From NCBI RefSeq assembly GCF_026626745.1, contig NZ_JAPNJW010000001.1:972311-1036310 (forward strand): 64,000 nt of DNA, read 5' to 3'. Below, in pieces: positions 3,118-55,270 of this stretch; the first letter of the stretch is position 1, and every line of letters begins with the position of its first letter. Source of the stretch: Nannocystis sp. RBIL2 (GTDB taxonomy: Bacteria > Myxococcota_A > Polyangia > Nannocystales > Nannocystaceae). A model generated the notes under the pieces. That model saw only the letters and a list, made by a program, of their open reading frames with translations, searched no databases and had not been told where the DNA came from. A program made the translations under genes and the position numbers.

Positions 3118-3960
3118 GTGCGTCGCGTCCGCTGCTGTGTTAGCGTCCGCCGCGTGACCGAGCCGGCCCCAGCCCCGCACATCGAGGCCCGCGGCCTCGG
3201 CGTGCAGTTCGCGGGCGGCGTGCAGGCCCTGAGCGGCCTCGACCTCGTCGTCCGCCGCGGCGAGCTGCTCGCCCTCATCGGCCCCTCGGGCTGCGGCAAG
3301 TCGACCTTCCTGCGCGTGGCAGCCGGCCTCGCGCCCGCCAGCGCGGGCACCATCACAGTCGCGGGCGAGGCCCCCGAGCGGGCCCGGGCGCGCCGCGCGG
3401 TCGCCTTCGTGTTTCAGGATCCGACCCTGCTCCCGTGGCGCAGCCTGCACGCCAACGTCCGCCTCCCGCTCGAGCTCGCGCGCGCCCCGAAAGCCGAGCA
3501 GACCACCGCCGCCGACGCCGCGCTCGCGCTCGTCGGCCTGTCGGAGTTCGCCGCCGCCCCGCCGACTGCGCTCTCGGGCGGCATGAAGATGCGGGCCTCC
3601 CTGGCCCGCGCCCTCGTCACCCGGCCCGAGCTGCTCCTGCTCGACGAGCCGTTCGGCGCCCTCGACGAGCTCACGCGCGAGCGGCTCAACGACGAGCTGC
3701 TGCGCCTGTGGGAGCGCGACCGCTTCACCGCCCTGGCCGTCACCCACAGCGTCGCCGAAGCGGTCCTGCTCGGCGACCGCGTCATCGTCCTCTCCGGCCG
3801 CCCCGGCCGCGTGGTCGCCGACATCCCGATCGCCCTGCCGCGCCCGCGCCGCGCCGCCCTGATCGGCAGCCCCGAGTTCGCGGCGATCGCCGCCGACGTC
3901 CGCGCCCACTTGCGCGCCGCCGCCCCGCCTGACCCTTCGGACCTGCCTGTTCGGACCTGA
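3118..3960 (+). CDS. ABC transporter ATP-binding protein, NitT/TauT (SsuB/TauB-like) family
   Basis: Walker A GPSGCGKST, ABC signature LSGGMKMRASLARAL, Walker B LLLLDEP. The probable true start is the in-frame GTG at 3154 (VTEPAPAP). Confidence 0.85.
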   Translation: MRRVRCCVSVRRVTEPAPAPHIEARGLGVQFAGGVQALSGLDLVVRRGELLALIGPSGCGKSTFLRVAAGLAPASAGTITVAGEAPERARARRAVAFVFQDPTLLPWRSLHANVRLPLELARAPKAEQTTAADAALALVGLSEFAAAPPTALSGGMKMRASLARALVTRPELLLLDEPFGALDELTRERLNDELLRLWERDRFTALAVTHSVAEAVLLGDRVIVLSGRPGRVVADIPIALPRPRRAALIGSPEFAAIAADVRAHLRAAAPPDPSDLPVRT

Positions 3961-4020
3961 CCTCTCCGCCTGTCCCTTCGCACCTGTCCCTCCACACAAG
4001 TCCCTCGGGACAGCTCTCCC
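3931..4020. repeat. Degenerate CCTGTCC-variant 14-bp phased array
   Basis: gaccTTCGgacctgCCTGTTCggacctgaCCTCTCCgCCTGTCCcttcgcaCCTGTCCctccacaCAAGTCCctcgGGACAG. Overlaps the ABC ATPase stop and the ATPase-permease spacer. Confidence 0.6.
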
Positions 4021-4924: not shown

Positions 4925-4995
4925 GCGCATGTCTCCTCCGACATGCCCCATCCTTCATGCACTCGAGGACATGCTCGAACGAGCATGCTCCCTCA
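4925..4995. repeat. GGACATGTCC-family 14-bp phased array (5 units) between convergent genes
   Basis: CATG at 4927, 4942, 4956, 4970, 4984. Confidence 0.8.
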
Positions 4996-8169: not shown

Positions 8170-8230
8170 TCACATGTCCCCGAGGACATGCTCTTTTATT
8201 CATGTCCTCGAGACCATGCCCCCATGGATG
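8170..8230. repeat. GGACATGTCC-family 14-bp phased array (4-5 units) upstream of SBP gene
   Basis: CATG at 8173, 8187, 8201, 8215, 8223; palindromic core ATGTCCccgaGGACAT. Confidence 0.8.
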
Positions 8231-9304: not shown

Positions 9305-9362
9305 TTCGGGCATGCTCCGAGCGACATGTCCTGCAGGACATTTCTTTAAAGACATGCCCGAT
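9305..9362. repeat. GGACATGTCC-family 14-bp phased array (4 units) downstream of SBP gene
   Basis: CATG at 9311, 9325, (CATT 9339), 9353; ATGTCCtgcaGGACAT; AT-rich spacer ttctttaaaga. Confidence 0.8.
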
Positions 9363-9652: not shown

Positions 9653-11014
9653 TTGCTCGCCCTCGCCGCGCTGGTGTTCGTTCGCCTCTCGTCCGCCGCG
9701 CCGCCGGTCGCCGCGCCGCCGGTCGACCTGACCTGGCAGGCCCCGCGCGAGTGCCCCGACGGCGACGACGTCCTGCTCATGGTCGCCGGCCTGCTGCGTC
9801 AGCCGACCGGCGACGACGCGCCAGGTCGCCCCGGCGCCCGCGGGCTCATCACCCGCGCCGGCGCGGCATGGGAGCTGCGGCTCGTGCTGCGCGGGCGGGG
9901 CAGCGACTACCGTCGCACCGTCCGTGCCGAGAGCTGCCCGATCCTCGCGCGCGCCGCCGCCCTCCTGATCGCCATCCACCTCGACCCCCTGGCCGTCGCT
10001 CGCGGTTTGCCCGCGCCCGCCGTCGTCCCGCCCGCGCCCCCGGCCCTGCCGCCCGACCTGTCCCCGGGGACAGCCACGATCCCACCGCCGGGCCCCTCCG
10101 ATCTGTCCCCGCGGACATCTGCGACCTCCGCGTCCGGTACGGCCCCGCCCGCCGACCTGTCCTCGCGGACATCCACGACCTCCGCGTCCGGTACGGCCCC
10201 GCCCACCGACCTGTCCTCGCGGACATCCAGCGCTCCGCCGTCCGAGCTACCCGCGCGGCCGGTCCTGCCGCCTGACCCGCTCGCGTCCGACCCGTCTCGC
10301 GCCCCCTCGATCCCCGCCGCTCCCGACCTGTCCTTCCGGCCAGCCCCGCCTCCCTCCCCCGCAGGTCGGCTCGCCTCGCCCGCGCCCCCGCGACCGCCCG
10401 CCGGCCCGTCGCGCCCGCTCGCCCCCGAGGACATGTCCGAAGAGACAGCAGAGTTCACCGCCGCGCGAACGCCCCGGCCAGCCGCACCGCCGCGCGTGCT
10501 CGGCCACCTCCGCCTCGAAGGCGGCCTCGACGTCGGCGTCCTCCCTGGCGCCGGGGGCCTCGTCGGCCTGTTCGGCGGCGTCACCTTGCCGCGCCTGCGC
10601 CTCGAGGCCGGCCTCGTCGGCGCGCCTGGCCGGATCCTCCCCGGCCTCAGCGACCGCCCCGGCGGCCGCTTCGACCGCCTCGGCGGGGTCGTGCGGATCT
10701 GTCCGACCTGGCTCCCGCGCCCGGCGCTCGCCGTCCTGCTGTGCGCCGGCTTCGAGGTCGGCGCGCTCCACGGCGTCGCCCGCGACGTCAGCGTCCCGAG
10801 CCCGCGCTGGGCCCCGTGGGCCAGCTTCTTCCTCGGCCCCGCGCTGCGCTGGCGGGTCGCCGGCCCGCTCGGCCTGTGGCTGGCCGTCGAGGGCCTCGTG
10901 GCCGTCAACCGCCCGATCTTCACCGTCGGCGCTGAAGAGGTGTACCGCGGCGGCCGCGCGGGCCTGCGCACCACTTTCGGCCTCGACCTGCAATTCGGGC
11001 CACGGAATCGCTGA
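9653..11014 (+). CDS. Hypothetical secreted Pro/Ser-rich protein with 18-aa tandem repeats
   Basis: TTG start followed by a signal-peptide-like N-terminus; contains 54-bp tandem repeats (DLSPRTSATSASGTAPPA x ~3); the C-terminal part has non-junk composition. Confidence 0.5.
   Translation: MLALAALVFVRLSSAAPPVAAPPVDLTWQAPRECPDGDDVLLMVAGLLRQPTGDDAPGRPGARGLITRAGAAWELRLVLRGRGSDYRRTVRAESCPILARAAALLIAIHLDPLAVARGLPAPAVVPPAPPALPPDLSPGTATIPPPGPSDLSPRTSATSASGTAPPADLSSRTSTTSASGTAPPTDLSSRTSSAPPSELPARPVLPPDPLASDPSRAPSIPAAPDLSFRPAPPPSPAGRLASPAPPRPPAGPSRPLAPEDMSEETAEFTAARTPRPAAPPRVLGHLRLEGGLDVGVLPGAGGLVGLFGGVTLPRLRLEAGLVGAPGRILPGLSDRPGGRFDRLGGVVRICPTWLPRPALAVLLCAGFEVGALHGVARDVSVPSPRWAPWASFFLGPALRWRVAGPLGLWLAVEGLVAVNRPIFTVGAEEVYRGGRAGLRTTFGLDLQFGPRNR
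10100..10235 (+). repeat. 54-bp tandem coding repeats (x2.5), each beginning with a CTGTCCnnnnGGACAT element copy
   Basis: gatctgtccccgcggacatctgcgacctccgcgtccggtacggccccgcccgcc / gacctgtcctcgcggacatccacgacctccgcgtccggtacggccccgcccacc / gacctgtcctcgcggacatccagcgc...; further single copies at 10055 and 10325. Confidence 0.75.
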
Positions 11015-11035: not shown

Positions 11036-12238
11036 GTGCCGCTCCCCCAGGAAGCACTCCCCGACTTCGCCGCCGTCTACCGCGCGAACTACGGCTTCGT
11101 CTGGCGCACCATCCGGCACCTCGGCGTCGATCTGGCGCGGGTCGACGACGCGGTCCAGGACACCTTCCTGGTCGTCTACCGCCGCCTGCCCGAGTTCGCC
11201 GGGCGTGCCGCGGTGCGCACCTGGTTGTTCGAGATCGCGCGGCGCATCGCCAGCCGTTACCGGCGCAGCGCCGCGCGCGAGGAGCCGCGCCGCTGCGCTT
11301 TGAGCGAGGCCGAGGTCCTCGCCCCCGCGGTCGAGGCCCCCGTGGAGCAGGCCGAGGCCGCCGCGCTCCTCCAGGGCTTCCTCGACGGCCTCGACCGCGA
11401 TCAGGCCGTCGTCTTCGTCATGACCGAGCTCGAGCAGTGGCAGGCCCCCGAGATCGCCGCCGAGCTCGGCGTCAACCTCAACACCGTCTACTCGCGCCTG
11501 CGCGCCGCTCGCCGCGAGCTCGACCGCATGGTCCGCCGCCTCGACGCCCGCGACCGCCGGGCCCGGCCGCGCCAGGGCGCCCACGTGCTCGCCGCCCTGG
11601 TCGTGGTCGGCCCGCCCTGGCCGCCGCCGTGGCGCCTGGCCGCCGCGCGCGATCCGGCTGTCGTCGGGGACATGCTCGCAAAGACATGGTCGATAAGCCA
11701 TGTCGCAACGCCGGCCGCGATCGCCGGCGGCAGCCCGGTCGTCGGCCTCTCGGTCGCCAGCGCCGGCCTCTTCGCAGTGCTGGCGTTCGGCCGCCCTGCA
11801 CCCGAGCCGCCGCAGTCGGTCGTCGCCGCGGCCCACGAGCCCGCGCCCGCTCAGTCGCACTCGCCACCGCAGTCGGTCGCGCTCGCGGCCGCAGCCGCAC
11901 CGATCCCGCCCGCCTCCGCCACGGCCGCTCCCCCCGCGCCCGCGCGACGCTCGACCCCTCGCGGCGAGGAGCCCTCGCTGGCCGCCGAGCTCACCCTCGT
12001 CGAGTCGATCCGCGCCGCCCTGCTCGCCGCCGACCACCGCACCACCCTCGAGCTGGTCGCCCGCCACCAGCGGCGCTTCCCCGCCGGCGTGTTCGCCCAG
12101 GAGACCGCCGCCGCCGCCATCGAGGCCCGCTGCCGCCTCGGCGACCACGACCGCGCCCGCCGCGACGCCGCCGCGTTCGTCGCCCGCTGGCCCGCCTCCG
12201 CCCTGGCCCCGCGGGTGTCCGCGTTGTGCCGCTCGTGA
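11036..12238 (+). CDS. ECF (sigma-70 family) RNA polymerase sigma factor, fused in-frame to an anti-sigma-like extension
   Basis: Sigma region 2 (DAVQDTFLVVYRRL, RTWLFEIARR) and region 4 (TELEQWQAPEIAAELGVNLNTVYSRLRAAR) lie in the first ~175 aa. After that, with no stop, come a predicted TM helix (SPVVGLSVASAGLFAVLAF) and an Ala/Pro-rich tail. A repeat element copy sits at the junction (11665-11710). Confidence 0.65.
   Translation: MPLPQEALPDFAAVYRANYGFVWRTIRHLGVDLARVDDAVQDTFLVVYRRLPEFAGRAAVRTWLFEIARRIASRYRRSAAREEPRRCALSEAEVLAPAVEAPVEQAEAAALLQGFLDGLDRDQAVVFVMTELEQWQAPEIAAELGVNLNTVYSRLRAARRELDRMVRRLDARDRRARPRQGAHVLAALVVVGPPWPPPWRLAAARDPAVVGDMLAKTWSISHVATPAAIAGGSPVVGLSVASAGLFAVLAFGRPAPEPPQSVVAAAHEPAPAQSHSPPQSVALAAAAAPIPPASATAAPPAPARRSTPRGEEPSLAAELTLVESIRAALLAADHRTTLELVARHQRRFPAGVFAQETAAAAIEARCRLGDHDRARRDAAAFVARWPASALAPRVSALCRS
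11665..11710. repeat. GGACATGTCC-family phased array (3 units) inside ECF sigma-fusion ORF
   Basis: CATG at 11671, 11685, 11699. Confidence 0.65.
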
Positions 12239-12586: not shown

Positions 12587-13942
12587 ATGCGTATCCCAGC
12601 GATCTCGACCCTCCCTATCCTCCTCTCTCTCCTCCCCGCCTGTGACCTCGATATCAAGCACTGCATCGGCGACTGCGAGCACGCGTCCGGCGGCGGATCC
12701 GGCAACACCTCCGAGGGACCCGGCGACACCACCGACGAGCCCTCCACCGACTCGGGCGCGCCCACGAGCGACTCCGGCGAGCCCGACACCGACACCGGCA
12801 TCGATCCCACCGACACCGGCGGCGAGCTCGGCACCTGCGACGTCGTCCACGACGCCCTGCCTGCCACCTGCGGCGACGGCCAGTACGAGCTCGGTGAGCT
12901 GTGCTTCTTCGGCACCTTCGGCTTCGGGAACTTTCCGGTCACCTCGAGCGTGGCCCTCCCGCTCGACGACCTCCACGGCGCCGATCTGCTCTTGACCCTG
13001 AGCGACCACACCATCCGGGGCGAGCTGTTCGCGCCGCTGACCACCGACACGAAGCTGTGGCCGCAATCGATCGGCGAGCAGCCCGTCTTGCGGGCCACCG
13101 GCGACTTCGACGAGGACGGCGTCATCGACGTCCTCGCTCACTCGCTCGGCCCCGACGGCGTCAGCGTCCACGCCCTCTTCCTCGACGGCGAGGGGGGCCT
13201 CGCCGACGACCAGATCGTCCACCTCGCGGAGAACGTCGTGACCCTCGACGCAGTCGACTGGAACGACGACGGCCACCTCGACATCATCACCCTCGCCCAC
13301 ACCGAAGCCCTCGACGGCCTCGTCATCCTGCTCGGCGACGGCACCGGCGACTTCACGGAGAGCGTCGGGCCGGCCATCGAGCTGGCCACGCCGGGCTACG
13401 TCCTCGGCGCCCTCCACGGCGACGGCCGCGCCGACGACTTCGTGTTCACCCAGAGCGGCAGCGGCACGATCGTCCGCCACAACGGCAACCTCCAGACGAC
13501 CTCCGCCCCGAGCATGCCGGCCGAGCTGTGGTTCCACGACTTCGTGATCGCCGACTTCGACGGCGACGGCTTCGGCGACATCGCCGGCGTCGCCACCAAC
13601 ACCCAGTTCGAGACCAGCGAGCTCGTGGTCTTCCTGCAGAAGAACGGCGACTTCCCGCTCACCGCTCGCTACCCGGTCAACTGCGGCGCCCGTCTGCTCG
13701 CCGCCGGCGACCTCGACAACGACGGCGTCCCCGACATCGTCACCGGCGGCGTCGATTTCATGGGCTCGCTCCGCCGCGGCGACGGCCAGGGCGGCTTCCC
13801 CCAGCACATGCAGATCGGCCTCGACGTCCTGAACGAGGGCGACGCGCTCCACATCGCCGACTTCGAGGGCGACGGCATCCCCGACGTCGTCGCCACCGGC
13901 GTGGAGAGCGCCGCGGTCGCGATCGCCTACAACCGCGGGTGA
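12587..13942 (+). CDS. FG-GAP/VCBS repeat lipoprotein (integrin-alpha-like beta-propeller)
   Basis: Signal peptide plus lipobox LLPAC; repeated FG-GAP-like units (DFDGDGxxD, DLDNDGVPD, DFEGDGIPD). Confidence 0.7.
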   Translation: MRIPAISTLPILLSLLPACDLDIKHCIGDCEHASGGGSGNTSEGPGDTTDEPSTDSGAPTSDSGEPDTDTGIDPTDTGGELGTCDVVHDALPATCGDGQYELGELCFFGTFGFGNFPVTSSVALPLDDLHGADLLLTLSDHTIRGELFAPLTTDTKLWPQSIGEQPVLRATGDFDEDGVIDVLAHSLGPDGVSVHALFLDGEGGLADDQIVHLAENVVTLDAVDWNDDGHLDIITLAHTEALDGLVILLGDGTGDFTESVGPAIELATPGYVLGALHGDGRADDFVFTQSGSGTIVRHNGNLQTTSAPSMPAELWFHDFVIADFDGDGFGDIAGVATNTQFETSELVVFLQKNGDFPLTARYPVNCGARLLAAGDLDNDGVPDIVTGGVDFMGSLRRGDGQGGFPQHMQIGLDVLNEGDALHIADFEGDGIPDVVATGVESAAVAIAYNRG

Positions 13943-13944
13943 CT

Positions 13945-14005
13945 CACAGTCATGTCCATAAATACATGTCTTTTATGACATACTCATAAAGACATGTCAT
14001 GGAGC
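13945..14005. repeat. GGACATGTCC-family 14-bp phased array with AT-rich spacers
   Basis: CATG at 13951, 13965, (CATA 13979), 13993; spacers ataaata / ttttatga / ctcataaaga. Confidence 0.8.
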
Positions 14006-14219
14006 TCGAGGTCCGTGCGCTCGGACCCGCGTCGGACCTGCTGGTCGCGCGCGCCCGCGGCTCACGGAACTCGGGCGCGGGCGCCATCCCCGTCGAAGTC
14101 GCCGACGTCGAAGTCGACCGCGCCGCGGTGGACGGGGTCAGCGGGTGACCGCGAAGCCGTCGACCTGTAGGGCGGCTCCCGTCTCTGCGCGCAATCGTCC
14201 GAACCCGCTCGCCACGCGA

Positions 14220-14292
14220 AAGGACATGTCGGACAGGGCATGTCGATAGAGACATGCCCGAATCGACATGTCCCCATCGACATGCCCTCGAG
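14220..14292. repeat. GGACATGTCC-family 14-bp phased array (5 units) abutting the SNF2 stop codon
   Basis: CATG at 14225, 14239, 14253, 14267, 14281, exactly 14 bp apart. Confidence 0.85.
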
Positions 14293-14293
14293 T

Positions 14294-17245
14294 TCACTCG
14301 AGCAGCGCCAGCAGGTCGCTGCGGGTGATCGCCGCCGCCCCCGCCGCGTCTTCGAGCGCCGCCTCGGCGATCGCCCGCTTGCGCGCCTGCAGGGACAGGA
14401 TCCGCTCCTCCACCGTCTCCTCGGCCACCAGCCGGTGCACGATCACCGGGCGCTCCTGGCCGATGCGGTGGGCGCGGTCGGCCGCCTGGTCTTCGACCGC
14501 GGGGTTCCACCACGGGTCGAGCAGGAACACGTGGTCGGCCGCCGTCAGGTTGAGGCCCGTGCCGCCGGCCTTGAGCGAGATCAGCATCACCGGCGGCCCG
14601 TCCGGGTCCTGGAACCGGTTCACCACCCCGGCGCGATCGCGGGTCGAGCCGTCGAGGCGGCAGAACGGCAGCCCCGCCGCCTGCAGCCCCGGCTCGCACA
14701 GGTCGAGCAGGCTGGTCCACTGCGAGAACACCAGCGCCTTGTGGCCCTCGGCGATCGCCTCGGTCAGGGTCTCGAGCAGCAGCTCGAGCTTCGACGAGCG
14801 CGTGGCCGACTGGCCCGGCACCAGCGCCGCGTGGCAGGCCGCCTGGCGCAGGCGCAGCAGCGCCTCGAGGGCCGCGAGCACCCCGCCGCCGGCCTGCAGC
14901 TGGGCCACCACTTCCTCGTGCGTGGCCGCCCGCACCGCGTCGTAGACGGCCCGCTCGCGCGCGTCGAGCGTGCAGCGCAGCACCACCTCGGTGCGCGGCG
15001 GCAGCTCGCGCGCCACCTCTTGCTTGCGCCGGCGCAGCACGAACGGCGCGATCCGCCGCCGCAACGCCCGCGCCGCCGCCTGGTCGCCGTCGCCGATCGG
15101 CCGGCCGAAGCGCTCCTGGAAGTCCGCGCGCCCGCCGAGCAGCCCCGGGTTGATGAAGTGGATCTGGCTCCACAGCTCGTCGAGGCGGTTCTCCACCGGC
15201 GTGCCCGTCATCGCCAGCCGCCAGTCGGCCTGCAGCCCGAACGCCGCCCGCGCGACCTGGCTCTCGGGGTTCTTGATCGCCTGCGCCTCGTCCAGGATCA
15301 CCGCGTCCCAGCGCTCGCCGGCCAGCGCCTCGGCGTCGAGCCGCAGCAGCGCGTAGCTGGTGAGCGTGAGGTCGGCCTGCGGATCGAGGCGTCGCTTCGG
15401 CCCGTGATACACGCTGACCCGAAGGCCAGGTCGGAACTTCTCCGCCTCCGCCGCCCAGTTGTGGATCACGCTGGTCGGCGCGACCACCAGAGTCCGGCCT
15501 CGCACCGCGCACAGCGCCTGCAGCGTCTTGCCGAGGCCCATGTCGTCGGCCAGCAGCGCGCCGAGCCCGGCCTCGCGCAAGAACGCCAGCCAGTCGACGC
15601 CGCGCCGCTGGTACGGCCGCAGCTCGACCTGCAGGTCGGCCGGCAGACGCGTCTCGGGGATCGCCTCGAAGCCCTCGACCAGCGCCGCCAGCCCCGCCAG
15701 CTCGGGCGGCGGCGGGTGGTCGAGCGCGCGGCACAGCTCGGCCAGCGCCGGCCGGGCCCACGTCGCCGGCTCGCCGCCCTGCTCGCGCGCCGCCAGCAGC
15801 AGCGTCACCTCCGAGCCGAACCGCGACAGCCAGTCGACCGGCAGCGGCGCGACCCCGCCGTCGTCGAGCACCACCTCGGTCGCGCCCGCCTGCCACGCCT
15901 CGAGCACCCGGCGCGCGTCCGCCTGCGAGACATGTCCCGAAGAACCTGTCTCGAAGGCAATGCCCAATCGGCCACCCTCGCCGGCGATCATGCGGGCCGC
16001 CAGCGGCCCCTTGCGCACGAACTCGCGGTGCGACTCGCCGGCGATCTCGCCGCCCTCGAACCCGCGCAGCGCCTCGGCCAGGCCGACCGCCAGCGGCCCG
16101 ACGGCGCTGGTGGTGCGCCCGAACTGCAGCCCGAGCTCGCTCAGCCGGCGCACCAGCGACGCCTCGGCGAGCGCGTCGCGGCGCGGCACCTCGCGCCCGC
16201 GGATCACCAGCCGCCCGGCCTCGACCCGCGCCGCCTCGGGTGTCCCGTAGACCAGGACCGGAAGGACAGACATGCCCGTGCCCGCGCGCCCGACTTCGAA
16301 CAGCACCCGCGGTCGCGCGTCGGACAGCACCGGCAGGCGGTCGGTCTTCTCCTTGAAGGCCTTGACCCGCGCGCGCAGGGCCGGGATGGCCTCGGCCACC
16401 AGCTCGCCCGCGCGCTCGGGCGAGAACTGCAGCCCCACGCGCAGCTCGGCCGCCTCCTTGGGCCCGATGCCGCCGTTGTCGAAGCAGCGCAGCACGTCGC
16501 CGCACAGCACTACCCCGCTGGCCGCGAACACCTCGGTGATCGTCGGGTCGCGGACGATGTACAGGCGGAAGCCCTTGCCGCCCTCGAACGCCGCCACCCG
16601 CCCGTGGTAGCCGGCCGGCTCGGCCCCGGCCTTGATCCTCTTGCCGTCGAGCGTGATGTCCTCGCAGCCGGCCAGCGCCGGCAGCAGCTTGCGCGTGATC
16701 ACCGGCGCCAGCGGACCGCGCTTGTAGATCCCCAGCGCCCCCTCGACCTCGAAGTCGGCCGCGGTCGCCACGATCCCCGGCCCCTCGACCTTGCCGCCGG
16801 TGATCGCCGCCAGGCTGTAACCGAGCGGCGTCTCCTTGCTCTCGGGACCTGTCCCTTCGGACACACGCACCCGCACCAGCTCGAGCGCGCCCTCGGCCCG
16901 GCGCAAGCGATACCCGACCCGACCCGCGCGCTCGCTGCCGCGCGGCATCGCCTCACCGGCCTCGACCGCGCGCTGGAGGGCGATCGTCGCCGCCGCCACG
17001 TGGAAGCAGCACTCGCCGGCGTCGTCGCAGTCGCAGCTCCACTCGGCGTCGCCGGGGTACAGCGCGACCGTCGGGCTCTTGCCCGCGCCCTTGATCGCGA
17101 CCCGCAGGACCACCTCGTCGCGCTCGCGCCGCACCCCCGCGACGGCCCCCGCGCGCGCGAGCTCGACCCCGCGAGACCAATCGCGGGGGCTGCACGCGGC
17201 GCGCACTGCATCGAGGAGAGCTCGCACGGGGCGGTCGCCTAGCAC
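14294..17245 (-). CDS. SNF2-family DEAD/DEAH helicase with N-terminal SWIM zinc finger
   Basis: SWIM CxC...CxH ([15 protein letters not shown]); SNF2_N ([20 protein letters not shown]); helicase C ([39 protein letters not shown]). Confidence 0.85.
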
Positions 17246-17645
17246 GACCGGGCTGCGCTGTCAGCCGCCTCGCCCCTCCGGGGCCGCAGAGCGCCCGCAA
17301 CAGGCCCGGCGGGGCGCCCGCAACCTCCGCGCCCACGACCCCGATTCGCCCGTGACTCCCGAGCCCGCGCGAGGACCGGTCTGCTCCCGCGACCCGCGAA
17401 CTCGACGCCGCCTTTCCTGACCGACTCGAAAGGTCAGCGCCCCGATTTGCTTCGAGGCCCGCTTTGCTTCGAGGCCCGCGTCAGCCCCGTCGCCGAGACA
17501 CGCGTCTTCGAGCTACGTGCCTCCGCACCTCCGGTCGTCCACGGCCTGGATGGACTGCGAGACGGACGCGAGCGCGTCGACGCGGGCAGGTAATGCGCGA
17601 TGACGACGCCCCGACCCGTCACCACCCCGCTCGACACGCTCGCGA

Positions 17646-18707
17646 TCACGTCGGCCGCGGCTCGGGCAGACCGGGCGGCAGGCGGCCCAGCGCGAGCGGC
17701 TGCAGCGGCGCCATCGGCGGGGTGCCGACGCGCTGGCGCCACGCCTCCGGCCCGAGCGGCTGGATCACGTCTCCGCGGGCGCGACAGGCCGCCAGCGCCG
17801 CGTCGAGCGTGGCCGGCTCGCACGGGTGCAGCACCACCAGCGGACCTATCGCCCCAGCGTGGGCGGGGGGCGGCTCGATCGGCGGCGCGCGCAGCAGCGC
17901 CGGCGCGAGGTAGGTCCGCGGATCGCCCGGGCGCTCGAGCTGTCCTCCGGGACAGAGCACCCTGGCCCCGGGGACAGCCGACCACGCGGCCAGGGCGGCG
18001 CGGTACACCTCGGCCAGGGCCGGCTCGACCGGCCCCGCGAACATCTCCGGGTCATCCGGCGGCCCGAACGCCGCGCCGACCCACAGCCGGTGCAGGTGCC
18101 GCTCGAGGCGCTCGAGCGGCCCCGCCACGAACGCCTGCACGATGCGCCGCGGATCGGCCCCGCCGCGGCGCAGCCCCGACAGCGCCAGCGCGTACGCGGC
18201 CAGCTCGCGGTCCGCGTCCGCGTGCACCGCCGCCACCCGCGGCCGCGCCGGCGTCACCCCGACTCGCTCCCACGCGAGCACCTCGTCCGGAGCCGCCTCG
18301 CCGGCCGCCCCGATCGTCAGCGCCTCGCCGGCCTGCTCGCGCGACAGCTCGTCGCGCAGCTCGGCCAGCAGCTCCGGCACCACCGCGCTCGCGCCCGCCT
18401 CGACCTCGAGGTGCACGCGTCGGCCCTGGCGCAGCAGCGTGCTGACGATCAGCAGGCTCTCGAGCGGCTGGTCCTTGCGCTCGCACACCCGCGCGGGCGG
18501 CCCCCCGAGCCCGTGGAAGCGCTGCTCACGGAGCGCCCACAGCCCGCGCTGCAACTTGCCGATCGTCTTGTGCCGATCCCACGCGACCATCCCGTGGGTG
18601 CGCGCCAGCGACTCGCCGATCGCGTCGGCCCGCGCCGCCAGGAGCCCCAGCAAGGCCACCTGCCGGGCCCGCGCTGCGGCCGCGATCCGCTCGGGCTTCA
18701 GGCTCAC
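17646..18707 (-). CDS. Aldehyde-dehydrogenase-like protein, degenerate and truncated (probable pseudoenzyme)
   Basis: Weak ALDH-like motifs (LHRLWVGAAFGPPDDPEMFAGPV ~ KVGDPxDxxTxxGPLI; GARVLCPGG ~ GAxLLxGG; GAIGPLVVLHPCE ~ EEIFGPVL). The catalytic Cys/Glu context is absent. The opposite-strand ORF is Arg/Ala/Ser junk. Confidence 0.45.
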   Translation of the reverse strand: MSLKPERIAAAARARQVALLGLLAARADAIGESLARTHGMVAWDRHKTIGKLQRGLWALREQRFHGLGGPPARVCERKDQPLESLLIVSTLLRQGRRVHLEVEAGASAVVPELLAELRDELSREQAGEALTIGAAGEAAPDEVLAWERVGVTPARPRVAAVHADADRELAAYALALSGLRRGGADPRRIVQAFVAGPLERLERHLHRLWVGAAFGPPDDPEMFAGPVEPALAEVYRAALAAWSAVPGARVLCPGGQLERPGDPRTYLAPALLRAPPIEPPPAHAGAIGPLVVLHPCEPATLDAALAACRARGDVIQPLGPEAWRQRVGTPPMAPLQPLALGRLPPGLPEPRPT

Positions 18708-18771
18708 GACGCCCGGTCATACCATGCCCAGGGGCACGTGCGGGCTCGCGGACGCGCTCGCCTGCGCCGAT

Positions 18772-19005
18772 CTACGTCCCCTTCGGCCCCACGACCTCGC
18801 CGGTCTCCGGATCGACAGGGAACCATGCGCCCGCGACCTCGTGACAGGCGTGCCTCAGCTCCGCGTAGACCTCGGGGGTGATCCACGTGTCGACCTCCTG
18901 CGGGTCGCGCCAGTGCATCGGGTTGTGGGCGAACGCGTTCAGGTGCTCGAGCAGGCGATAGAGCCGTTCCGCAGCCTGTTCATCCAGACATGCTCTAACG
19001 GCCAT
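18772..19005 (-). CDS. Small hypothetical protein (77 aa)
   Basis: Native-like composition (W, H, Y, F, E rich): ...HNPMHWRDPQEVDTWITPEVYAELRHACHEVAGAWFPVDPETGEVV. The N-terminus overlaps repeat array 18972-19065, so the true start may be internal. Confidence 0.35.
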   Translation of the reverse strand: MAVRACLDEQAAERLYRLLEHLNAFAHNPMHWRDPQEVDTWITPEVYAELRHACHEVAGAWFPVDPETGEVVGPKGT

Positions 19006-19065
19006 GCCCCTTCGAGCATGCCCTTTCGAGCATGCCTATCAGGACATGCCTCAAGCGACAGGCGA
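18972..19065. repeat. CATGCC-variant 14-bp phased array (6 units)
   Basis: CCTGTTC 18975; CATG at 18989, 19003, 19017, 19031, 19045. Confidence 0.85.
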
Positions 19066-19878
19066 CTGCGCCAGCAGCCCGCGCAGCAGGCTGGCCACCT
19101 GGGGCTTGGCCGCGCGCGTGCGCTCCTGGACCTCTTCGTGGTTCAGGCCGACCTGGCTGGCCGCGTTGGTGACCACGCCGACGCCGCAGACCGCCGCGCC
19201 GTGGGCGGCGGCGAGGATCGCCTCGTAGGTCGTCGACATGCCGACGACCTGGCCGCCGAGCGAGCGCAGGGCCGCCGTCTCGGCCGGGGTCTCGTACTGC
19301 GGGCCGCGGGCGTGGGCATAGACCACCTCGGCCAGCTTGCTCGCGCCGAGCCCGGGGTCGATCGCCTGCAGGCGCGCGCGCAGGTGCGGGCTGTACAGCT
19401 GGCTCATGTCGATGAAGCGGGCGCCGACCAGCGGGGTCGGGCCGAACAGGTTCATCTGGTCCTTGAGCAGCACCACCTGGCCGGTGCGCAGCGCCGGGTC
19501 GAGCCCGCCGACGGCGCAGGTCAGGCACACCCCGCGGGCGCCGTTGGCCAGCATGGCCCACAGCGGCGCGGTGACGACGTTGATCGGGTGACCCTCGTAC
19601 GGGTGGATCCGGCCGGTCTGCACGCACACGCGCAGCTTGCCGACGGTGCCGAACACCAGCGCCGTGCCGTGGCCGGCCACCGTGGGCACCGGCAGGCCGA
19701 GGCCGCGCAGCGGGATCGAGCCCTCCACCGCCATCCCGAGCCCGTCGGGCCCGTCGCCGGCCATGCCGACGAAGCCGGAGCCGGACACCACGACCCAGTC
19801 GATCTTGGCGCCCTCGAGGCGTTCACGCAGGTGTTCGGCGGCGCGGTGGTAGTGCGGGTCTTCCGAGTGGAGCAGCAT
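19051..19878 (-). CDS. Purine nucleoside phosphorylase (PNP/MTAP family)
   Basis: PNP-UDP family motifs (GSGFVGMAGDG, VGMSTTYEAILAAAHGAAV, TNAAS). Confidence 0.8.
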   Translation of the reverse strand: MLLHSEDPHYHRAAEHLRERLEGAKIDWVVVSGSGFVGMAGDGPDGLGMAVEGSIPLRGLGLPVPTVAGHGTALVFGTVGKLRVCVQTGRIHPYEGHPINVVTAPLWAMLANGARGVCLTCAVGGLDPALRTGQVVLLKDQMNLFGPTPLVGARFIDMSQLYSPHLRARLQAIDPGLGASKLAEVVYAHARGPQYETPAETAALRSLGGQVVGMSTTYEAILAAAHGAAVCGVGVVTNAASQVGLNHEEVQERTRAAKPQVASLLRGLLAQSPVA

Positions 19879-19891
19879 GCAGAGCCAAGCT

Positions 19892-20938
19892 CTACAGGCT
19901 CATCACGGCCAGCACAACGCCGAGGGCGATGCCGATCGTCACGCCGATGCCGACCGCGATCATCGTCGTCCGCGTCGCCCCGCTCGGCGGCGAGCCGGGC
20001 GTCGTGCCGGGCGGCGTCTTCTTCTGCTCCTGCCGGATCTTCTCGCTGATCTCCTCGGGCGAGCGCAGCTCCACGTCGGCGTGACGCGGGGGCACCTGCC
20101 CGCCGAGGCGCTTCGAGATCTCGGTGAGGCCGACCTTGAGCTCCTCGAACGACGGGCGCACGTCGGGTCGGCGGCTCATCATGCGCCGGCACAGGTCGGA
20201 CAGCGCCTCGTCGAAGCCCTTGATCTCGTACTTGAGCTCGGGCCGCTCCGAACGCAGGTGGCGGCGCACCACCGCGGTGTAGTGGTCGTCCTGGCCGCCC
20301 TTGCGGAACGGCGGGTGACCGCTGCACATGTGAAACAGCGAGCAGCCGAGCGCATAGACGTCGGCGCGCGCGTCGACCTCCTTGCCCATCGCCTGCTCGG
20401 GCGCGAGGTAGTCGGGCGTGCCGACGAACACGCCGGTGGCGGTGATCGACAGGTCCTCTTGCAGCGCCTTGGCCAGGCCGAAGTCGGTCACCTTGACGAT
20501 GCCCGTCGACGTCACCACCAGGTTCGACGGCTTCACGTCGCGGTGTACGACGCCCACGCGCTGGGTCTCGGCGAGCCCGATCGCCGCCTGGCGGATGACC
20601 TCCGCCGCGTCGCCCGGGTGCAGCGCGCCCCGCTTCTTGAGCATCGCGCCGATGTCCTCGCCGTCGAGGAACTCCATCGCCAGGAAGGGCCGGTCCTCGT
20701 GCTCGCCGATGAAGTACACCGCCACCACGTTGGGGTGATTCATCTGCGCCAGGGCCTTGCCCTCGCGGAGGAACCGCGTCTTGAACTCCTCGGACTCGCG
20801 GTGCTTCTTGCCGAGGATCTTGATCGCCACCCGCCGGCCGAGACCGGCGTCGACGCCCTCATAGACCTCCCCCATGGCCCCTTTGCCGACGAGGCCTTTG
20901 ACCTTGTAGGGGCCGATCTGGGTCGGAACCGACGACAT
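19892..20938 (-). CDS. Ser/Thr protein kinase with C-terminal TM anchor
   Basis: Hanks kinase motifs GKGAMGEV, VAIK, HRDVKPSNL, DFG, APE. Confidence 0.85.
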   Translation of the reverse strand: MSSVPTQIGPYKVKGLVGKGAMGEVYEGVDAGLGRRVAIKILGKKHRESEEFKTRFLREGKALAQMNHPNVVAVYFIGEHEDRPFLAMEFLDGEDIGAMLKKRGALHPGDAAEVIRQAAIGLAETQRVGVVHRDVKPSNLVVTSTGIVKVTDFGLAKALQEDLSITATGVFVGTPDYLAPEQAMGKEVDARADVYALGCSLFHMCSGHPPFRKGGQDDHYTAVVRRHLRSERPELKYEIKGFDEALSDLCRRMMSRRPDVRPSFEELKVGLTEISKRLGGQVPPRHADVELRSPEEISEKIRQEQKKTPPGTTPGSPPSGATRTTMIAVGIGVTIGIALGVVLAVMSL

Positions 20939-21145
20939 CGCCCTCAGAACCTAGCACGGACCGCGCCGGCGCCGCTACGTTGCGACCAAACGGCCGCTGC
21001 AGGCCTTCCAGGCGATCCTGCGGGCGCCGCGGCCACCTCTCGGCGACGGCGCAGGCACCGGCGCGAACACCCGGCGAGGACCCTCACGGACCCACGCGAG
21101 CCCCCATGGCCGGAGGAGTCCGCCCGTCGGCCGCGGCCGCGCGCC

Positions 21146-22561
21146 TCAGTCGCGATGAAAGCCCGGCTCGGCCGGGTTTTCGAACCGCGTCATGTGCTTG
21201 ATGAACATCAGCGGGACCTCGCCGATCGGCCCGTTGCGCTGCTTGCCGATGATGATCTCGGCCTGGTTCTCGACCTTCTTCTTCTCGTCCTCGGTCGCGG
21301 CGTAGCGCTCGGCGCGGTAGATGAACATGATGACGTCCGCATCCTGCTCGATGGCGCCGGACTCGCGCAGGTCCGACAGCTGGGGCCGGTGATCGGCGCG
21401 GGTGTCGACCGCGCGGTTGAGCTGGGACAGCGCCAGGACGGGCATCCGCAGCTCTTTGGCCATCGCCTTGAGGCCGCGCGAGATCTCGCTGATCTCCTGC
21501 TCGCGCGAGTCGTAGCGGGACTTGCCGCCGCGCGCGAGCTGCAGGTAGTCGACGATGATCATCCCGAATTGGCCCTCGATGCCAGGGAAAATGCTCTTGT
21601 CGTCCTTGAAGCGGCGCGCACGCGCGCGCATCTCGAGGATCGACGGCGCCGCCTGGTCGTCGATGTAGAACTTGCTCTGGGCCATCCGCGACGCCGCGCT
21701 GGTCATGCGGATCCACTCTTCCTCGAGATAGTTGCCGGTGCGCAGCTTGCCCGCGTCGACGCGGGCCTCGGCACACAGCACGCGCTCGACCAGCTGGCTC
21801 GCGCCCATCTCGAGCGAGAAGAACAGCACCGGGTGCATCACCGGCTTCTCGCCGTCGGGCAGGCCGTCGAAGCGCTGCGGCATGATGCAGGCGCTCTGCG
21901 CCAGGTTGAGCACGAACGCGGTCTTGCCCATCGACGGGCGCGCCGCGATGATCACGAGGTCGCCCGGCTGCAGCCCGCCGGTCATGTGGTCGAGCTGCGT
22001 GAAGCCGGTGGGCACGCCGGTGATCGGGTTCTTCCGCTTGGCCCGCTCCGAGATCTGGTTGAACACCTGGATCAGCAGGTCGCGCGACGACACGTAGCCG
22101 GTCTTGCGCCCGCGCTCGTTGACCTCGAGCACCCGCTTCTCGGCCTGGTCGATGAACTCGTCCGGGCTCTCGAGGTCGCCCATCCCCTCTTCGGCGATCT
22201 CCTTGGTGACGACGACGAGGTTGCGGATGGTCGCCTGGCGCCGGACCATCTCCGCGTGGTGCGTGATGTTGCGGCTGGTCGCGTAGCGATCGGCGAGCCG
22301 CGTCAGCGCCTCGATGCCGCCGACCAGCTTGAGCTCGTCGCTGGCCCGCAGCTGCGCCTCGAGCGTGACCGTGTCGATCGGCTCGCGCTTCTCCGACAGC
22401 GCCCGCATGGCCCGAAACACGGCCTGGTGCGACGGGACGTAGAAGTCCTCCTCGCGCACCACGTCGAGCACGTCGAGCAGCGCCTGATCGCCGCGCAGGA
22501 TGATGCCGCCGAGGATCGCCGCCTCGGCCTCGCTGTTGTGCGGGAGAGTACGTCCAACCAT
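21146..22561 (-). CDS. dnaB: Replicative DNA helicase DnaB
   Basis: N-terminal DnaB domain; Walker A GKTAF in ARPSMGKTAF; full-length 471 aa. Confidence 0.95.
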   Translation of the reverse strand: MVGRTLPHNSEAEAAILGGIILRGDQALLDVLDVVREEDFYVPSHQAVFRAMRALSEKREPIDTVTLEAQLRASDELKLVGGIEALTRLADRYATSRNITHHAEMVRRQATIRNLVVVTKEIAEEGMGDLESPDEFIDQAEKRVLEVNERGRKTGYVSSRDLLIQVFNQISERAKRKNPITGVPTGFTQLDHMTGGLQPGDLVIIAARPSMGKTAFVLNLAQSACIMPQRFDGLPDGEKPVMHPVLFFSLEMGASQLVERVLCAEARVDAGKLRTGNYLEEEWIRMTSAASRMAQSKFYIDDQAAPSILEMRARARRFKDDKSIFPGIEGQFGMIIVDYLQLARGGKSRYDSREQEISEISRGLKAMAKELRMPVLALSQLNRAVDTRADHRPQLSDLRESGAIEQDADVIMFIYRAERYAATEDEKKKVENQAEIIIGKQRNGPIGEVPLMFIKHMTRFENPAEPGFHRD

Positions 22562-22630: not shown

Positions 22631-23128
22631 CTAGTGCGACAGCGGGCCCGCCGGCAACCACGCGGCGGGCTTGCCGTCGCGGAACCCCGGCGGGCTCGAG
22701 CCGGGCGCGCCGAGCTGCAGACCCAGCTCCGTCAGCACCTCCCGCACGCGCCGCGCGCTCGGGTCGTCCGGCTTCCACTGCAGATGAGCGTCGAGCAGCC
22801 GCGAGAAGAATTCGCCGGTGTCGTCGGCGACATGGAGGAGCGCGTCCTCCTCGTGATCCCACAGCACCCACGGCATGCCGATCGTGCGCAGCACCTTCGG
22901 TTCGACGTAGAAGCCGAACGCGTTGCCGGCGCCATCCATGGCGACGACGATGAAGTTCGGCGCGTGGCAGTCGAGCTCGTCGGCGAGCATCGGCATCGGC
23001 TGGAACGACACCCGATCGAGGTCGAGGCGGAATTGCGGGTCGGCGTCGGCGCGGGCCAAGACGGCGCGGATCGCCTCGTCCGGCGGCAGACCGAGCGCGT
23101 CGTAGTCGGCGAGGTAGCGGCGTTCCAT
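22631..23128 (-). CDS. Hypothetical protein, possibly SMI1/KNR4 (SUKH-1)-like
   Basis: ATG at 23128 (MERRYLADYDALG); Trp/acidic-rich composition. The ORF track extension to 23272 is Arg/Ala-rich and unlikely. Confidence 0.45.
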   Translation of the reverse strand: MERRYLADYDALGLPPDEAIRAVLARADADPQFRLDLDRVSFQPMPMLADELDCHAPNFIVVAMDGAGNAFGFYVEPKVLRTIGMPWVLWDHEEDALLHVADDTGEFFSRLLDAHLQWKPDDPSARRVREVLTELGLQLGAPGSSPPGFRDGKPAAWLPAGPLSH

Positions 23129-23174
23129 CCGCTCCACCCTTTCACGCCGCGGCCCATCGTGGCAAGGTGACCGC

Positions 23175-23411
23175 ATGCGCCTCGCCCTCGTCGCCCTCGC
23201 CGCCCTCGCGCTGTCCGCCTGCGCCGGCAAGCTGGAGAAAGTCACGCGCACCCAGGCCGCCGCCGACTTCAAGTGCGACGCCGAGAAGCTGAAGGTCCGC
23301 GGCGACGAGGTCTACGGCAAGTACCACGTCGCCGGCTGCGGTCAGAAGGGCGTCTACTCGGCCCAGTGCCTCATGGGCGACTGCAGCGCCCAGCGCCTCC
23401 AGGGCGAGTAG
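23175..23411 (+). CDS. Small Cys-rich lipoprotein
   Basis: Signal peptide plus lipobox ALSAC; 78 aa. Confidence 0.5.
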   Translation: MRLALVALAALALSACAGKLEKVTRTQAAADFKCDAEKLKVRGDEVYGKYHVAGCGQKGVYSAQCLMGDCSAQRLQGE

Positions 23412-29633: not shown

Positions 29634-29705
29634 TTGGGGCGGTAGGATTCGAACCTACGAATGGCGGAACCAAAAACCGCTGGCTTACCACTTGCCGACG
29701 CCCCA
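29634..29705 (-). tRNA. tRNA-Gln (anticodon TTG)
   Basis: Manual fold: acceptor UGGGGCG/CGCCCCA, T-arm GTAGG-TTCGAAT-CCTAC, anticodon loop UUUUGGU (UUG). Closely parallels E. coli tRNA-Gln. No encoded CCA. It sits in the conserved tRNA-Gln/prs/rplY/pth neighbourhood. Confidence 0.8.
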
Positions 29706-29714
29706 GAATTTGTT

Positions 29715-29770
29715 CGGCCCGGTGAGGCCGGGCCCTGCAGGTCCCGAAGGACTGGGCCCGAAGGACTGGG
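29715..29770. repeat. 15-bp tandem repeat (GGGCCCGAAGGACTG x ~2.5) upstream of tRNA-Gln
   Basis: ...gtcccgaaggactgggcccgaaggactgggcccgaagaattgccc; preceded by the hairpin ggcccggtgaggccgggcc (29710-29728). Confidence 0.5.
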
Positions 29771-30204
29771 CCCGAAGAATTGCCCGTGCTCTGGGGATCG
29801 CAGGAACGCCCCCCAGGGCGCGCGCTTTATAGGATTAGCCCAAAGGCGCTGTCAACCGTCCCACCAGCGCCGAACCCGACATCCGGGCGCAGGGGCCACG
29901 TCGGACGGGTCACACGGCGGCGTCTCGCGGCGGCACCTCGCGGCGGCACCTCTTCTGGCGCCTCCTGCGCCTGCCCCTGACGACCTGGTCTGAGGGCCCG
30001 GCGGATGGTGCGGTGAATTGGGGGTCCGAGGCCCGGTCCCGCGTCGCGGACGTCCGGCGAATCTCGTGAGTTCTCTTGCTCGGCAGCGGGGCACAACTCG
30101 GGTGGGATCGTGGGTCTGGGGCCCGTGCGAGGGTCCCGCTTTGTCCCACAGCCACCTTTACCCGTGTGCTAGGTTGCGGGCCTCGCAGGAGACGACCAAT
30201 TCCC

Positions 30205-42419: not shown

Positions 42420-42492
42420 AGTGTCCAAATGGACATGTTTGAATCAGCATGTCCATCCGGACATTTCTGAAAGGACATGTCCCGATCCGCAG
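42420..42492. repeat. GGACATGTCC-family 14-bp phased array (4-5 units) downstream of HxlR
   Basis: CATG at 42434, 42448, (CATT 42462), 42476; ATGTCCatccGGACAT; AT-rich spacers. Confidence 0.85.
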
Positions 42493-46081: not shown

Positions 46082-46150
46082 CTCAACCTGCCCCTTCGAC
46101 CCTGTCGCTTCGGACCTGGCCCTTCACACATGTCGCAAAGTCAAGACAGA
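46082..46150. repeat. Degenerate 14-bp phased array (CCTG/CATG at 46087, 46101, 46115, 46129, 46143)
   Basis: aaCCTGCCCcttcgacCCTGTCGcttcggaCCTGGCCcttcacaCATGTCGcaaagtCAAGACAG. Confidence 0.6.
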
Positions 46151-55171: not shown

Positions 55172-55270
55172 CTGCGGGCATGTCCGCAGGGACATGTCCC
55201 GCAGACCATGAGTAGAAGGGCATGTCCGTGAGGACATGCCCTTCGGCGCATCGAAGGGCCTACCTCAGCG
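55172..55270. repeat. GGACATGTCC-family 14-bp phased array (6-7 units) between convergent genes
   Basis: CATG at 55189, 55203, 55217, 55231, 55245, (55259 CATC). Two perfect GGACATGTCC decamers 14 bp apart. Confidence 0.9.

Follow-up and report, generated by a model that had tools for sequence, protein, structure and literature searches.

A 64,000-nucleotide stretch of the genome of Nannocystis sp. RBIL2 (contig NZ_JAPNJW010000001.1, positions 972,311 to 1,036,310; hereafter the window, with a GC content of 72%) encodes a degenerate aldehyde dehydrogenase (ALDH)-like protein next to a large SNF2 helicase, and the question it raises is with which of its neighbours, if any, this protein works. 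Three open reading frames (ORFs) that a first-pass annotation had placed on the minus strand are all present there: a 77-aa ORF (18772-19005), a 353-aa protein that we call ORF2 (17646-18707) and a 983-aa SWIM zinc-finger SNF2 helicase (14294-17245). The two long ORFs have a coding-type GC content at third codon positions (GC3) of 0.94-0.95, and that of the 77-aa ORF is 0.83. The annotation had read the ALDH-like protein and the helicase as a possible new module in a defence or repair island, bounded by repeat arrays, or else the ALDH-like ORF as a decaying gene. Our analysis favours a different explanation, to which we give somewhat better than even chances: ORF2 is a non-catalytic ALDH-fold partner of a tail-anchored Hanks-type Ser/Thr kinase encoded upstream, the helicase is an independent neighbour, and the arrays of phased CATG palindromes on either side are generic 3' elements.

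ORF2 keeps an aldehyde dehydrogenase fold without its catalytic residues

Searches of the three proteins with hidden Markov models recovered the Snf2 motor of the helicase, and gave no direct match for ORF2 or for the 77-aa ORF. The window copy of ORF2 has no significant match to Pfam, NCBIfam or PADLOC models, and none to the Pfam Aldedh family (PF00171) at E<0.1; its identity is derived from relatives, profiles and structure, and not from direct family scans. ORF2 is 98% identical to a hypothetical protein of Nannocystis pusilla and has 131 homologues of ~340-380 aa, all from Nannocystaceae or other Myxococcales, some of which carry a precomputed Aldedh match. Among 36 aligned relatives, 13 match Pfam Aldedh at E<=0.01, the best at 3.2e-8. 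Profile-profile alignment of the family to ALDH gives a probability of 99.2% and an E-value of 2.5e-19, and the predicted structure of ORF2 is confident and compact (pLDDT 92.8), with both the Rossmann-type and the catalytic domain of the two-domain ALDH fold. An exhaustive profile search of 1.84 billion representative sequences recovered 47 family members at E<=1e-10, and weak matches to the catalytic-domain part of ~500-aa ALDHs begin only at E ~5e-9 upward; the ORF2 family is small, sharply bounded and restricted to Nannocystales.

Comparison with active ALDHs, by profile-to-sequence as well as profile-profile alignment, shows what this fold has lost. The nucleophilic cysteine (Cys302, in the GQxC motif) is replaced by an invariant proline in the ORF2 family, Pro186 (codon 18150-18152; sGxDP versus AGQKC/AGERC), the general-base glutamate of the LEMGGK motif falls in a variable column (vGV..a), the NAD(P)-binding lysine of the KPS motif (Lys192) is Glu101 in ORF2, and the FTGSxxxG glycine segment is deleted from the family in the profile-profile alignment. 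An active ALDH would be recognized by its catalytic cysteine and by the combination of general-base glutamate, Lys192 and GSTxxG; ORF2 has neither, and in its sequence every residue needed for aldehyde oxidation is gone, as is the nucleotide-binding glycine motif. It is also ~130-150 residues shorter than canonical ALDHs. The earlier description of ORF2 as a truncated ALDH-like protein lacking the catalytic cysteine is thus upheld, both by the fold and by the Pro186 replacement.

What remains is well conserved. The family alignment contains ~40 invariant positions, among them the C-terminal ERLPPGLPEPRP, which corresponds to the region of the ALDH 'PFGG' motif, a group of residues near the former active site (E76, Q80, E103, R157, D166, E168, Y172, R180 and R181), and R203 and W209 in ALDH motif regions. 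The ratio of nonsynonymous to synonymous substitution rates (dN/dS) of ORF2 against five Nannocystis species is 0.12-0.14, and ORF2 is therefore under strong purifying selection.

The closest known relatives in kind are ALDH16A1 and, grouped with it, the ALDH-derived crystallins. ALDH16A1 has likewise kept the ALDH fold while losing the catalytic cysteine, and a non-catalytic or binding role has been proposed for it (PMC8160307); lacking the cysteine, it is considered a binding protein, and the Cys-less ALDHs known so far are non-catalytic (PMC8160307). It would serve as the precedent for a binding function of ORF2. At ~800 aa ALDH16A1 is much larger than ORF2 (353 aa). Beyond the cysteine, ORF2 is also without the general-base glutamate, Lys192 and all of the FTGSxxxG cofactor segment. 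In contrast to ALDH16A1, it occurs in bacteria and only in Nannocystales, is apparently operonic with a Ser/Thr kinase, and stays below the Pfam Aldedh threshold.

Gene order around ORF2

Gene order was compared over 53 loci with an ORF2 homologue from Nannocystales reference genomes (Nannocystis, Enhygromyxa, Plesiocystis, Paraliomyxa and metagenome-assembled genomes, MAGs), on which the window proteins were placed by tblastn. In 47 of the 53 loci a Hanks-type kinase gene, with 65-83% identity to that of the window, immediately precedes the ORF2 homologue in the same orientation, the conserved co-directional adjacency or overlap by which kinase-partner operons are recognized; often the two genes overlap by 4 bp or are less than 20 bp apart. 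The window kinase (19892-20938, minus strand; Pfam Pkinase E 1.6e-53) has intact VAIK, HRD, DFG and APE motifs and a hydrophobic C-terminus that reads as a transmembrane tail anchor, both taken from the translation. A purine nucleoside phosphorylase (PNP) gene stands between kinase and ORF2 in 20 of 53 loci, as it does in the window (19051-19878, minus strand; matched by Pfam PNP_UDP_1 with E 8e-34 and by NCBIfam PRK08202 with 211 bits, the cut-off being 218). In 46 of 53 loci the ORF2 homologue has the gene for the replicative helicase DnaB within 10 kb, usually just upstream; in the window that gene (21146-22561, minus strand; DnaB and DnaB_C domains in the homologous loci) is followed farther upstream by those for S6 and L9, and the order S6-S18-L9-DnaB-kinase-PNP-ORF2 recurs in a distant MAG. 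The conserved block is rpsF-rpsR-rplI-dnaB-kinase-(PNP)-ORF2, with dnaB as its upstream anchor, and the ORF2 cluster would form its distal end. Outside Nannocystis, the distance from the preceding stop codon to the start of ORF2 is -11 to +70 bp, and overlaps of 4 bp are numerous; these short gaps and overlaps indicate an operon, and kinase and ORF2 are probably translationally coupled.

The only hydrophobic helix of the kinase is that at the extreme C-terminus, and the protein has no sensor domain. Across the order the kinase (65-83% identity) is far better conserved than ORF2 (38-55%, best-segment tblastn). Conservation of this kind is out of the ordinary among Hanks kinases of myxobacteria, most of which show little synteny.

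The pkn4-pfk operon of M. xanthus, in which pfk encodes the substrate of the kinase (PMC2887360), offers a possible precedent for a kinase encoded together with its substrate. There too a Hanks-type kinase gene lies directly upstream of, and co-oriented with, a gene for a metabolic-enzyme fold, and myxobacteria have kept this gene order to an unusual degree (PMC2887360). The partner in pkn4-pfk is an active phosphofructokinase, whereas ORF2 appears to be a dead enzyme fold, and unlike the kinase of pkn4-pfk the ORF2-linked kinase is tail-anchored and encoded beside dnaB. By analogy, a kinase that is predicted to be catalytically competent would be held at the membrane by its C-terminal tail, and ORF2 might serve as its substrate or regulator, as a subunit with an allosteric or scaffolding role, or as an adaptor that senses a ligand. 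One apparent Rosetta-stone fusion of kinase and ORF2 (P0133) was discarded as a frameshift artefact, its Arg/His-rich linker resembling an out-of-frame kinase tail.

The 983-aa protein is a SWIM-SNF2 helicase, as first annotated. The SWIM zinc-finger signature CxCxnCxH, set in a SWIM fold, occupies residues 69-86 (nt 16988-17041) and the Snf2 motor residues 545-929 (nt 14459-15613), with both lobes of an SNF2-family ATPase (PF00176, 194.5 bits; PF00271, Helicase_C, 71.8 bits) and the Sulfolobus SNF2/Rad54 core 1z63 as the closest solved relative (E 1.5e-95); the middle region is beta-rich. No Pfam or NCBIfam family could be assigned to the N-terminal 540 residues, and the homologues found were few. 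An N-terminal CxCxnCxH and a C-terminal Snf2 motor with Helicase_C are shared with other bacterial SWIM-(SNF2_assoc)-SNF2 helicases, such as the NCBIfam SCO1167/SCO6262 family and a pilus-regulating Snf2 helicase; the window protein scores far under those NCBIfam cut-offs (429 versus 1200 and 345 versus 1100), with the motor alone aligning. Pfam SNF2_assoc itself is carried by a SWIM-SNF2 paralogue at locus L012. By its domains the helicase would be an ordinary ATP-dependent double-stranded DNA translocase of a widespread, uncharacterised bacterial family.

Its place next to ORF2 is not conserved. Scored over the 50 informative loci, a full-length SWIM-SNF2 orthologue lies directly downstream of ORF2 in only eight, namely in five Nannocystis species and at the MAG loci L011, L015 and L025. 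Two more distant helicase orthologues (L058, 53% over full length; L059, 41%) are encoded without ORF2, kinase or PNP as neighbours. An undescribed ALDH-SNF2 module is therefore unsupported, and the finding that ORF2 is largely not conserved beside SNF2 genes is one that the first-pass annotation had itself named as speaking against it. We suggest that the helicase follows ORF2 by lineage-specific synteny in Nannocystis and a few relatives, where it would have a 5' region of its own. The spacer between the two genes (17246-17645, minus strand), compared in a six-genome alignment and scanned with Tandem Repeats Finder (TRF), is hypervariable, with a length of 217-858 bp among the six Nannocystis genomes, and in the window it holds a 17-bp tandem repeat (x2.3) at 17441-17479. 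Its last ~105 bp before the helicase start (17246-17351) are conserved, with ~35 nt invariant across the six genomes; a hypervariable spacer that ends in a conserved block before the helicase start suggests a separate 5' regulatory region for the helicase. Folding of the spacer RNA was unremarkable (z -1.35, -1.09 and +1.42), and no phased CATG array lies between ORF2 and the SNF2 gene.

The spacer is also a hotspot of species-specific tandem repeats: those of N. punicea have a unit of ~75 bp, and those of N. bainbridge are of GCGACGAA type. Spacer repeats of relatives lie at ~11060-11600 in L006 and at ~11060-11560 in L007.

Several observations weigh against a kinase partnership of ORF2 or against the independence of the helicase. 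The upstream kinase is missing from six of the 53 loci, and no serine or threonine is invariant in the ORF2 family alignment, which leaves no evident fixed phospho-acceptor. In Nannocystis the kinase-(PNP)-ORF2 junction is broken by a hairpin array and measures 148-540 bp; if the arrays terminate transcription, Nannocystis ORF2 would be transcribed apart from the kinase, possibly with the helicase. The invariant charged residues near the former active site could serve a different catalytic chemistry instead of a non-catalytic role. It is from gene order that an interaction between kinase and ORF2 is surmised. On the side of the helicase, the kinase, ORF2 and SNF2 genes of L011 and L015 are tightly packed, with operon-like gaps of 16 bp and ~28 bp, and SNF2 genes occur within 10 kb of ORF2 in three further loci (L012, L023 and L056), above chance expectation; because of this packing and these nearby genes, a lineage-specific functional link between ORF2 and SNF2 is possible.

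Such a link would take its strongest form in a lineage-restricted module in which the pseudo-ALDH serves the SWIM-SNF2 translocase as adaptor or accessory subunit, perhaps relays the kinase signal, and is co-transcribed with the helicase between the arrays. The eight loci with a full-length, same-strand SNF2 gene directly downstream include three non-Nannocystis MAGs, the ORF2-SNF2 gaps in L011 and L015 are ~28 bp, the arrays flank the ORF2-SNF2 pair with none in between, a SWIM-SNF2 paralogue lies 2 kb downstream in L012, and the SNF2 genes of L023 and L056 are within ~8 kb. We nevertheless regard this module as unlikely, given the 42 of 50 informative loci that have no SNF2 gene next to ORF2, the orthologues in L058 and L059 that occur without ORF2, the repeat-rich spacer with its conserved block, and the absence of an ALDH-fold partner from known SNF2 systems and of any defence context here. 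A more specific version, in which Nannocystis ORF2 is a phospho-regulated adaptor that couples the membrane-anchored kinase to the SWIM-SNF2 translocase in a unit delimited by phased CATG hairpin arrays, seems to us improbable; were it correct, a three-part 'membrane signal to DNA remodelling' module would stand beside dnaB. ORF2 might also act independently of both kinase and helicase, as an enzyme or small-molecule binder with a remodelled Arg/Glu-rich pocket in a gene order that is simply inherited. The clustering of many charged and aromatic invariant positions around the former active site, the strong purifying selection and the presence of PNP, a metabolic enzyme, in the same operon in 20 loci are in keeping with this; we consider this, too, unlikely, as the catalytic cysteine, general-base glutamate, Lys192 and Rossmann glycine motif are all gone, Cys-less ALDHs known so far are non-catalytic (PMC8160307), and the fact that ORF2 overlaps the kinase gene by 4 bp in genera far apart favours translational coupling and stoichiometric co-production.

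Two further explanations fare worse. A defence island against phages or plasmids built around the SNF2 gene, of Zorya, DISARM, Dpd or BREX type or new, might be read from the PADLOC matches of the helicase to DpdE (E 2e-136), ZorD and DrmD and of the kinase to PD-T4-6. The helicase matches, and likewise that to BrxH, cover the generic Snf2 motor only (residues ~516-982), PD-T4-6 matches the generic kinase domain only, and the NCBIfam scores are far below their cut-offs (ZorD 225 versus 1500; DrmD 71 versus 950 and 39 versus 610; DpdE 33 versus 500), so that the helicase gives no full-length match above cut-off to the SNF2 component of any of the four systems. None of their partner genes was found near the cluster among the neighbours examined in the window, and neither ORF2 nor the 77-aa ORF has a PADLOC match. 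The neighbours are housekeeping genes, for L25, Pth, H+-PPase, S6, L9, DnaB and PNP, accompanied by those for an extracytoplasmic function (ECF) sigma factor and an FG-GAP protein. Because these neighbours are housekeeping and the synteny is order-wide, the locus is core housekeeping genome and not the defence or repair island that had been proposed; we hold a defence role to be highly improbable. There is next to no chance that ORF2 is a decaying ALDH remnant, the alternative first offered with the module: its missing ~130-150 residues, its lost catalytic residues and the lack of a Pfam match for the window copy might suggest decay, but intact ORFs of similar size occur in 53 genomes of several genera with ~40 invariant columns, and the low dN/dS and the confident, compact model speak for a maintained protein.

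As kinds, ALDH pseudoenzymes, kinase-partner operons, SWIM-SNF2 helicases and extragenic palindromes all have precedents; the ORF2 family, its order-wide kinase linkage beside dnaB and the phased CATG arrays seem not to have been described before. If ORF2 is indeed the partner of the kinase, a bacterial ALDH-fold pseudoenzyme has been selected order-wide as the operonic partner of a Hanks kinase next to dnaB, and the two would make a tractable kinase-partner pair in a group whose kinase substrates are mostly unknown. The SNF2 neighbour, apparently a matter of lineage-specific synteny and not of a defence module, counsels caution in reading function from adjacency.

Phased CATG arrays

The arrays that flank the ORF2-SNF2 pair are built from a 10-bp palindrome, GGRCATGYCC, followed by 4 degenerate nt (consensus of 116 units). 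One array of five units (18989-19048) lies 2 nt after the PNP stop codon, in the kinase-(PNP)-ORF2 junction, and is predicted to form an RNA hairpin with z -5.2; the other, also of five units (14225-14284), lies 10 bp after the SNF2 stop codon and can form a near-perfect hairpin of ~27 bp (z -7.9). In both the units are spaced at exactly 14 bp. A third array, of three CATG units and one degenerate unit (13951-13996; z -3.6), lies 9 bp after the stop codon of the convergent FG-GAP gene (12587-13942, plus strand). Further arrays are found in the window at 79-166, 4928-4987, 8173-8218, 9311-9356, 11671-11702, 42434-42479 and 55179-55238, with 2-unit CATG copies at 44092-44232. The window thus holds 10 arrays of at least three units (up to seven), versus none in shuffled sequence, and GACATGYC occurs 37 times against 4.5 expected. 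The flanking arrays of the first-pass annotation therefore exist, with five units each; they are neither perfect, since TRF matches are 82-95% and CATG-centred cores recur with differing spacers, nor specific to the cluster.

Arrays occupy four of seven convergent, three of 30 tandem and none of seven divergent intergenic regions, and seven of the 10 begin 3-27 bp past a stop codon. Their distribution is narrow: five Nannocystis loci contain 18 arrays in 105 kb, and the 48 other Nannocystales loci (~0.9 Mb) a single distinct one. In each of the six Nannocystis genomes compared, the arrays after PNP and after SNF2 occupy the same places, with (G)GCATG cores invariant and in register and spacers that drift. 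The arrays are a Nannocystis-wide 3'-end element, and in this genus one of them would have entered what was originally the kinase-(PNP)-ORF2 junction and lengthened it to its present size. The RNA hairpins of the arrays have z-scores of -2.7 to -7.9 and are retained across species with few compensatory changes (covariation term +0.5); because structure is kept with so few compensatory changes, selection on the hairpin is inseparable from selection on phased sequence recognition.

The sole array outside Nannocystis (L001:9227-9272, identical with L052:11212-11257) belongs to the Nannocystaceae MAG BC1.173 and lies ~160 bp past the stop codon of its ORF2 homologue; the element may be older than the genus, or it may have passed to a close relative.

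The arrays most likely act as terminators or 3'-untranslated-region structures, or as phased binding sites. Set against an intrinsic terminator, a GC-rich hairpin followed by a U-tract 3' of a gene, the arrays have strong hairpins (z to -7.9), a clear 3' placement and no T-run; an intrinsic-terminator scan of 14100-21200, with a consensus ill-suited to this organism, did not flag them. A role as phased methylation sites is also conceivable. Repetitive extragenic palindromic sequences and bacterial interspersed mosaic elements (REP/BIME), and the U-tract-less hairpin terminators of high-GC bacteria, are the classes with which such arrays may be compared: these, too, are short, imperfect, extragenic palindromes 3' of genes, enriched between convergent genes and able to form stable hairpins. 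The arrays differ from REP/BIME in their strict 14-bp phasing, in the self-complementary 10-bp GGRCATGYCC core, in CATG cores that are invariant across species while spacers drift freely, in the missing U-tract and in their restriction to essentially one genus. A literature search on Nannocystis repeats, the GGACATGTCC motif and the function of bacterial SWIM-SNF2 proteins returned nothing relevant, and the phased arrays would, if these readings are right, provide candidate terminators, phased protein-binding sites or methylation sites confined to one genus at the 3' ends of genes.

The period of 14 bp (a 10-bp core and 4 nt) is far too short for CRISPR. A scan of viral contigs for the phased pattern gave 37 matches, mostly perfect tandem repeats and otherwise near-perfect or simple ones, on contigs of 26-65% GC, and these are unrelated.

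One array of three units (11671-11702) lies in-frame inside a 400-aa ORF (11036-12238, plus strand) whose N-terminal ~165 residues are an ECF sigma factor (Sigma70_r2, r4_2) and which is conserved at full length in the remaining Nannocystis loci. Either a coding linker tolerates the array, or two separate genes have been modelled as one. Other tandem repeats with a 14-bp period occur at 3928-3991 (CCTGACCCTTCGCA, x4.6), 29743-29777 (CCCGAAGGACTGGG, x2.5, perfect) and 46085-46125 (AACCTGTCCCTTCG, x2.9). All three contain a CCCTTCG-like segment that is also present in some CATG-array spacers, and they may represent a related family of repeats.

Other features of the window

The 77-aa ORF on the minus strand had been taken for a small protein at the head of the cluster. 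The ORF is present, and its status as a gene is doubtful. Among 5.8e9 proteins its only homologues are a 100% identical copy in Nannocystis sp. ILAH1 and one 84% relative in N. bainbridge, which differs at the N-terminus; by tblastn, three of the remaining four Nannocystis species lack it, and the fourth, N. pusilla Na p29 (L005), shows no more than a weak match of 38%. The start codon (ATG, 19005) coincides with the CATG core of one array unit, and the codons that follow cross another. The dN/dS of 0.39 comes from only seven substitutions and is uninformative, and no significant Pfam, NCBIfam or PADLOC match was obtained. It is best described as an orphan with homologues in only two genomes, and not as a conserved member of any cluster.

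An Rfam scan of the whole window found a single tRNA (29634-29705) and nothing in the spacer or the arrays. A sigma-70 scan of 14100-21200 predicted no promoters, with a consensus ill-suited to a myxobacterium of 72% GC.

Some minor features of the surroundings may be recorded. A 213-aa protein without a Pfam family is encoded at 22631-23272 (minus strand), between rplI (L9) and dnaB, in a block that is otherwise canonical rpsF-rpsR-rplI-dnaB. Just upstream of the ECF sigma gene, ORF 9653-11014 (plus strand) encodes a Pro/Ser-rich protein of 453 aa without a Pfam match, and contains a 54-bp tandem repeat (x2.8, 89% identity) at 10094-10244. The DnaB of N. pusilla Na p29 (L005:6012-7421) is only 71% identical to that of the window, the flanking kinase, PNP, ORF2 and SNF2 proteins of the same locus are 98-99% identical, and the DnaB proteins of four other Nannocystis species are 97-98% identical; the divergence of this one dnaB may reflect allelic replacement or recombination, or a masked or low-quality stretch of sequence.

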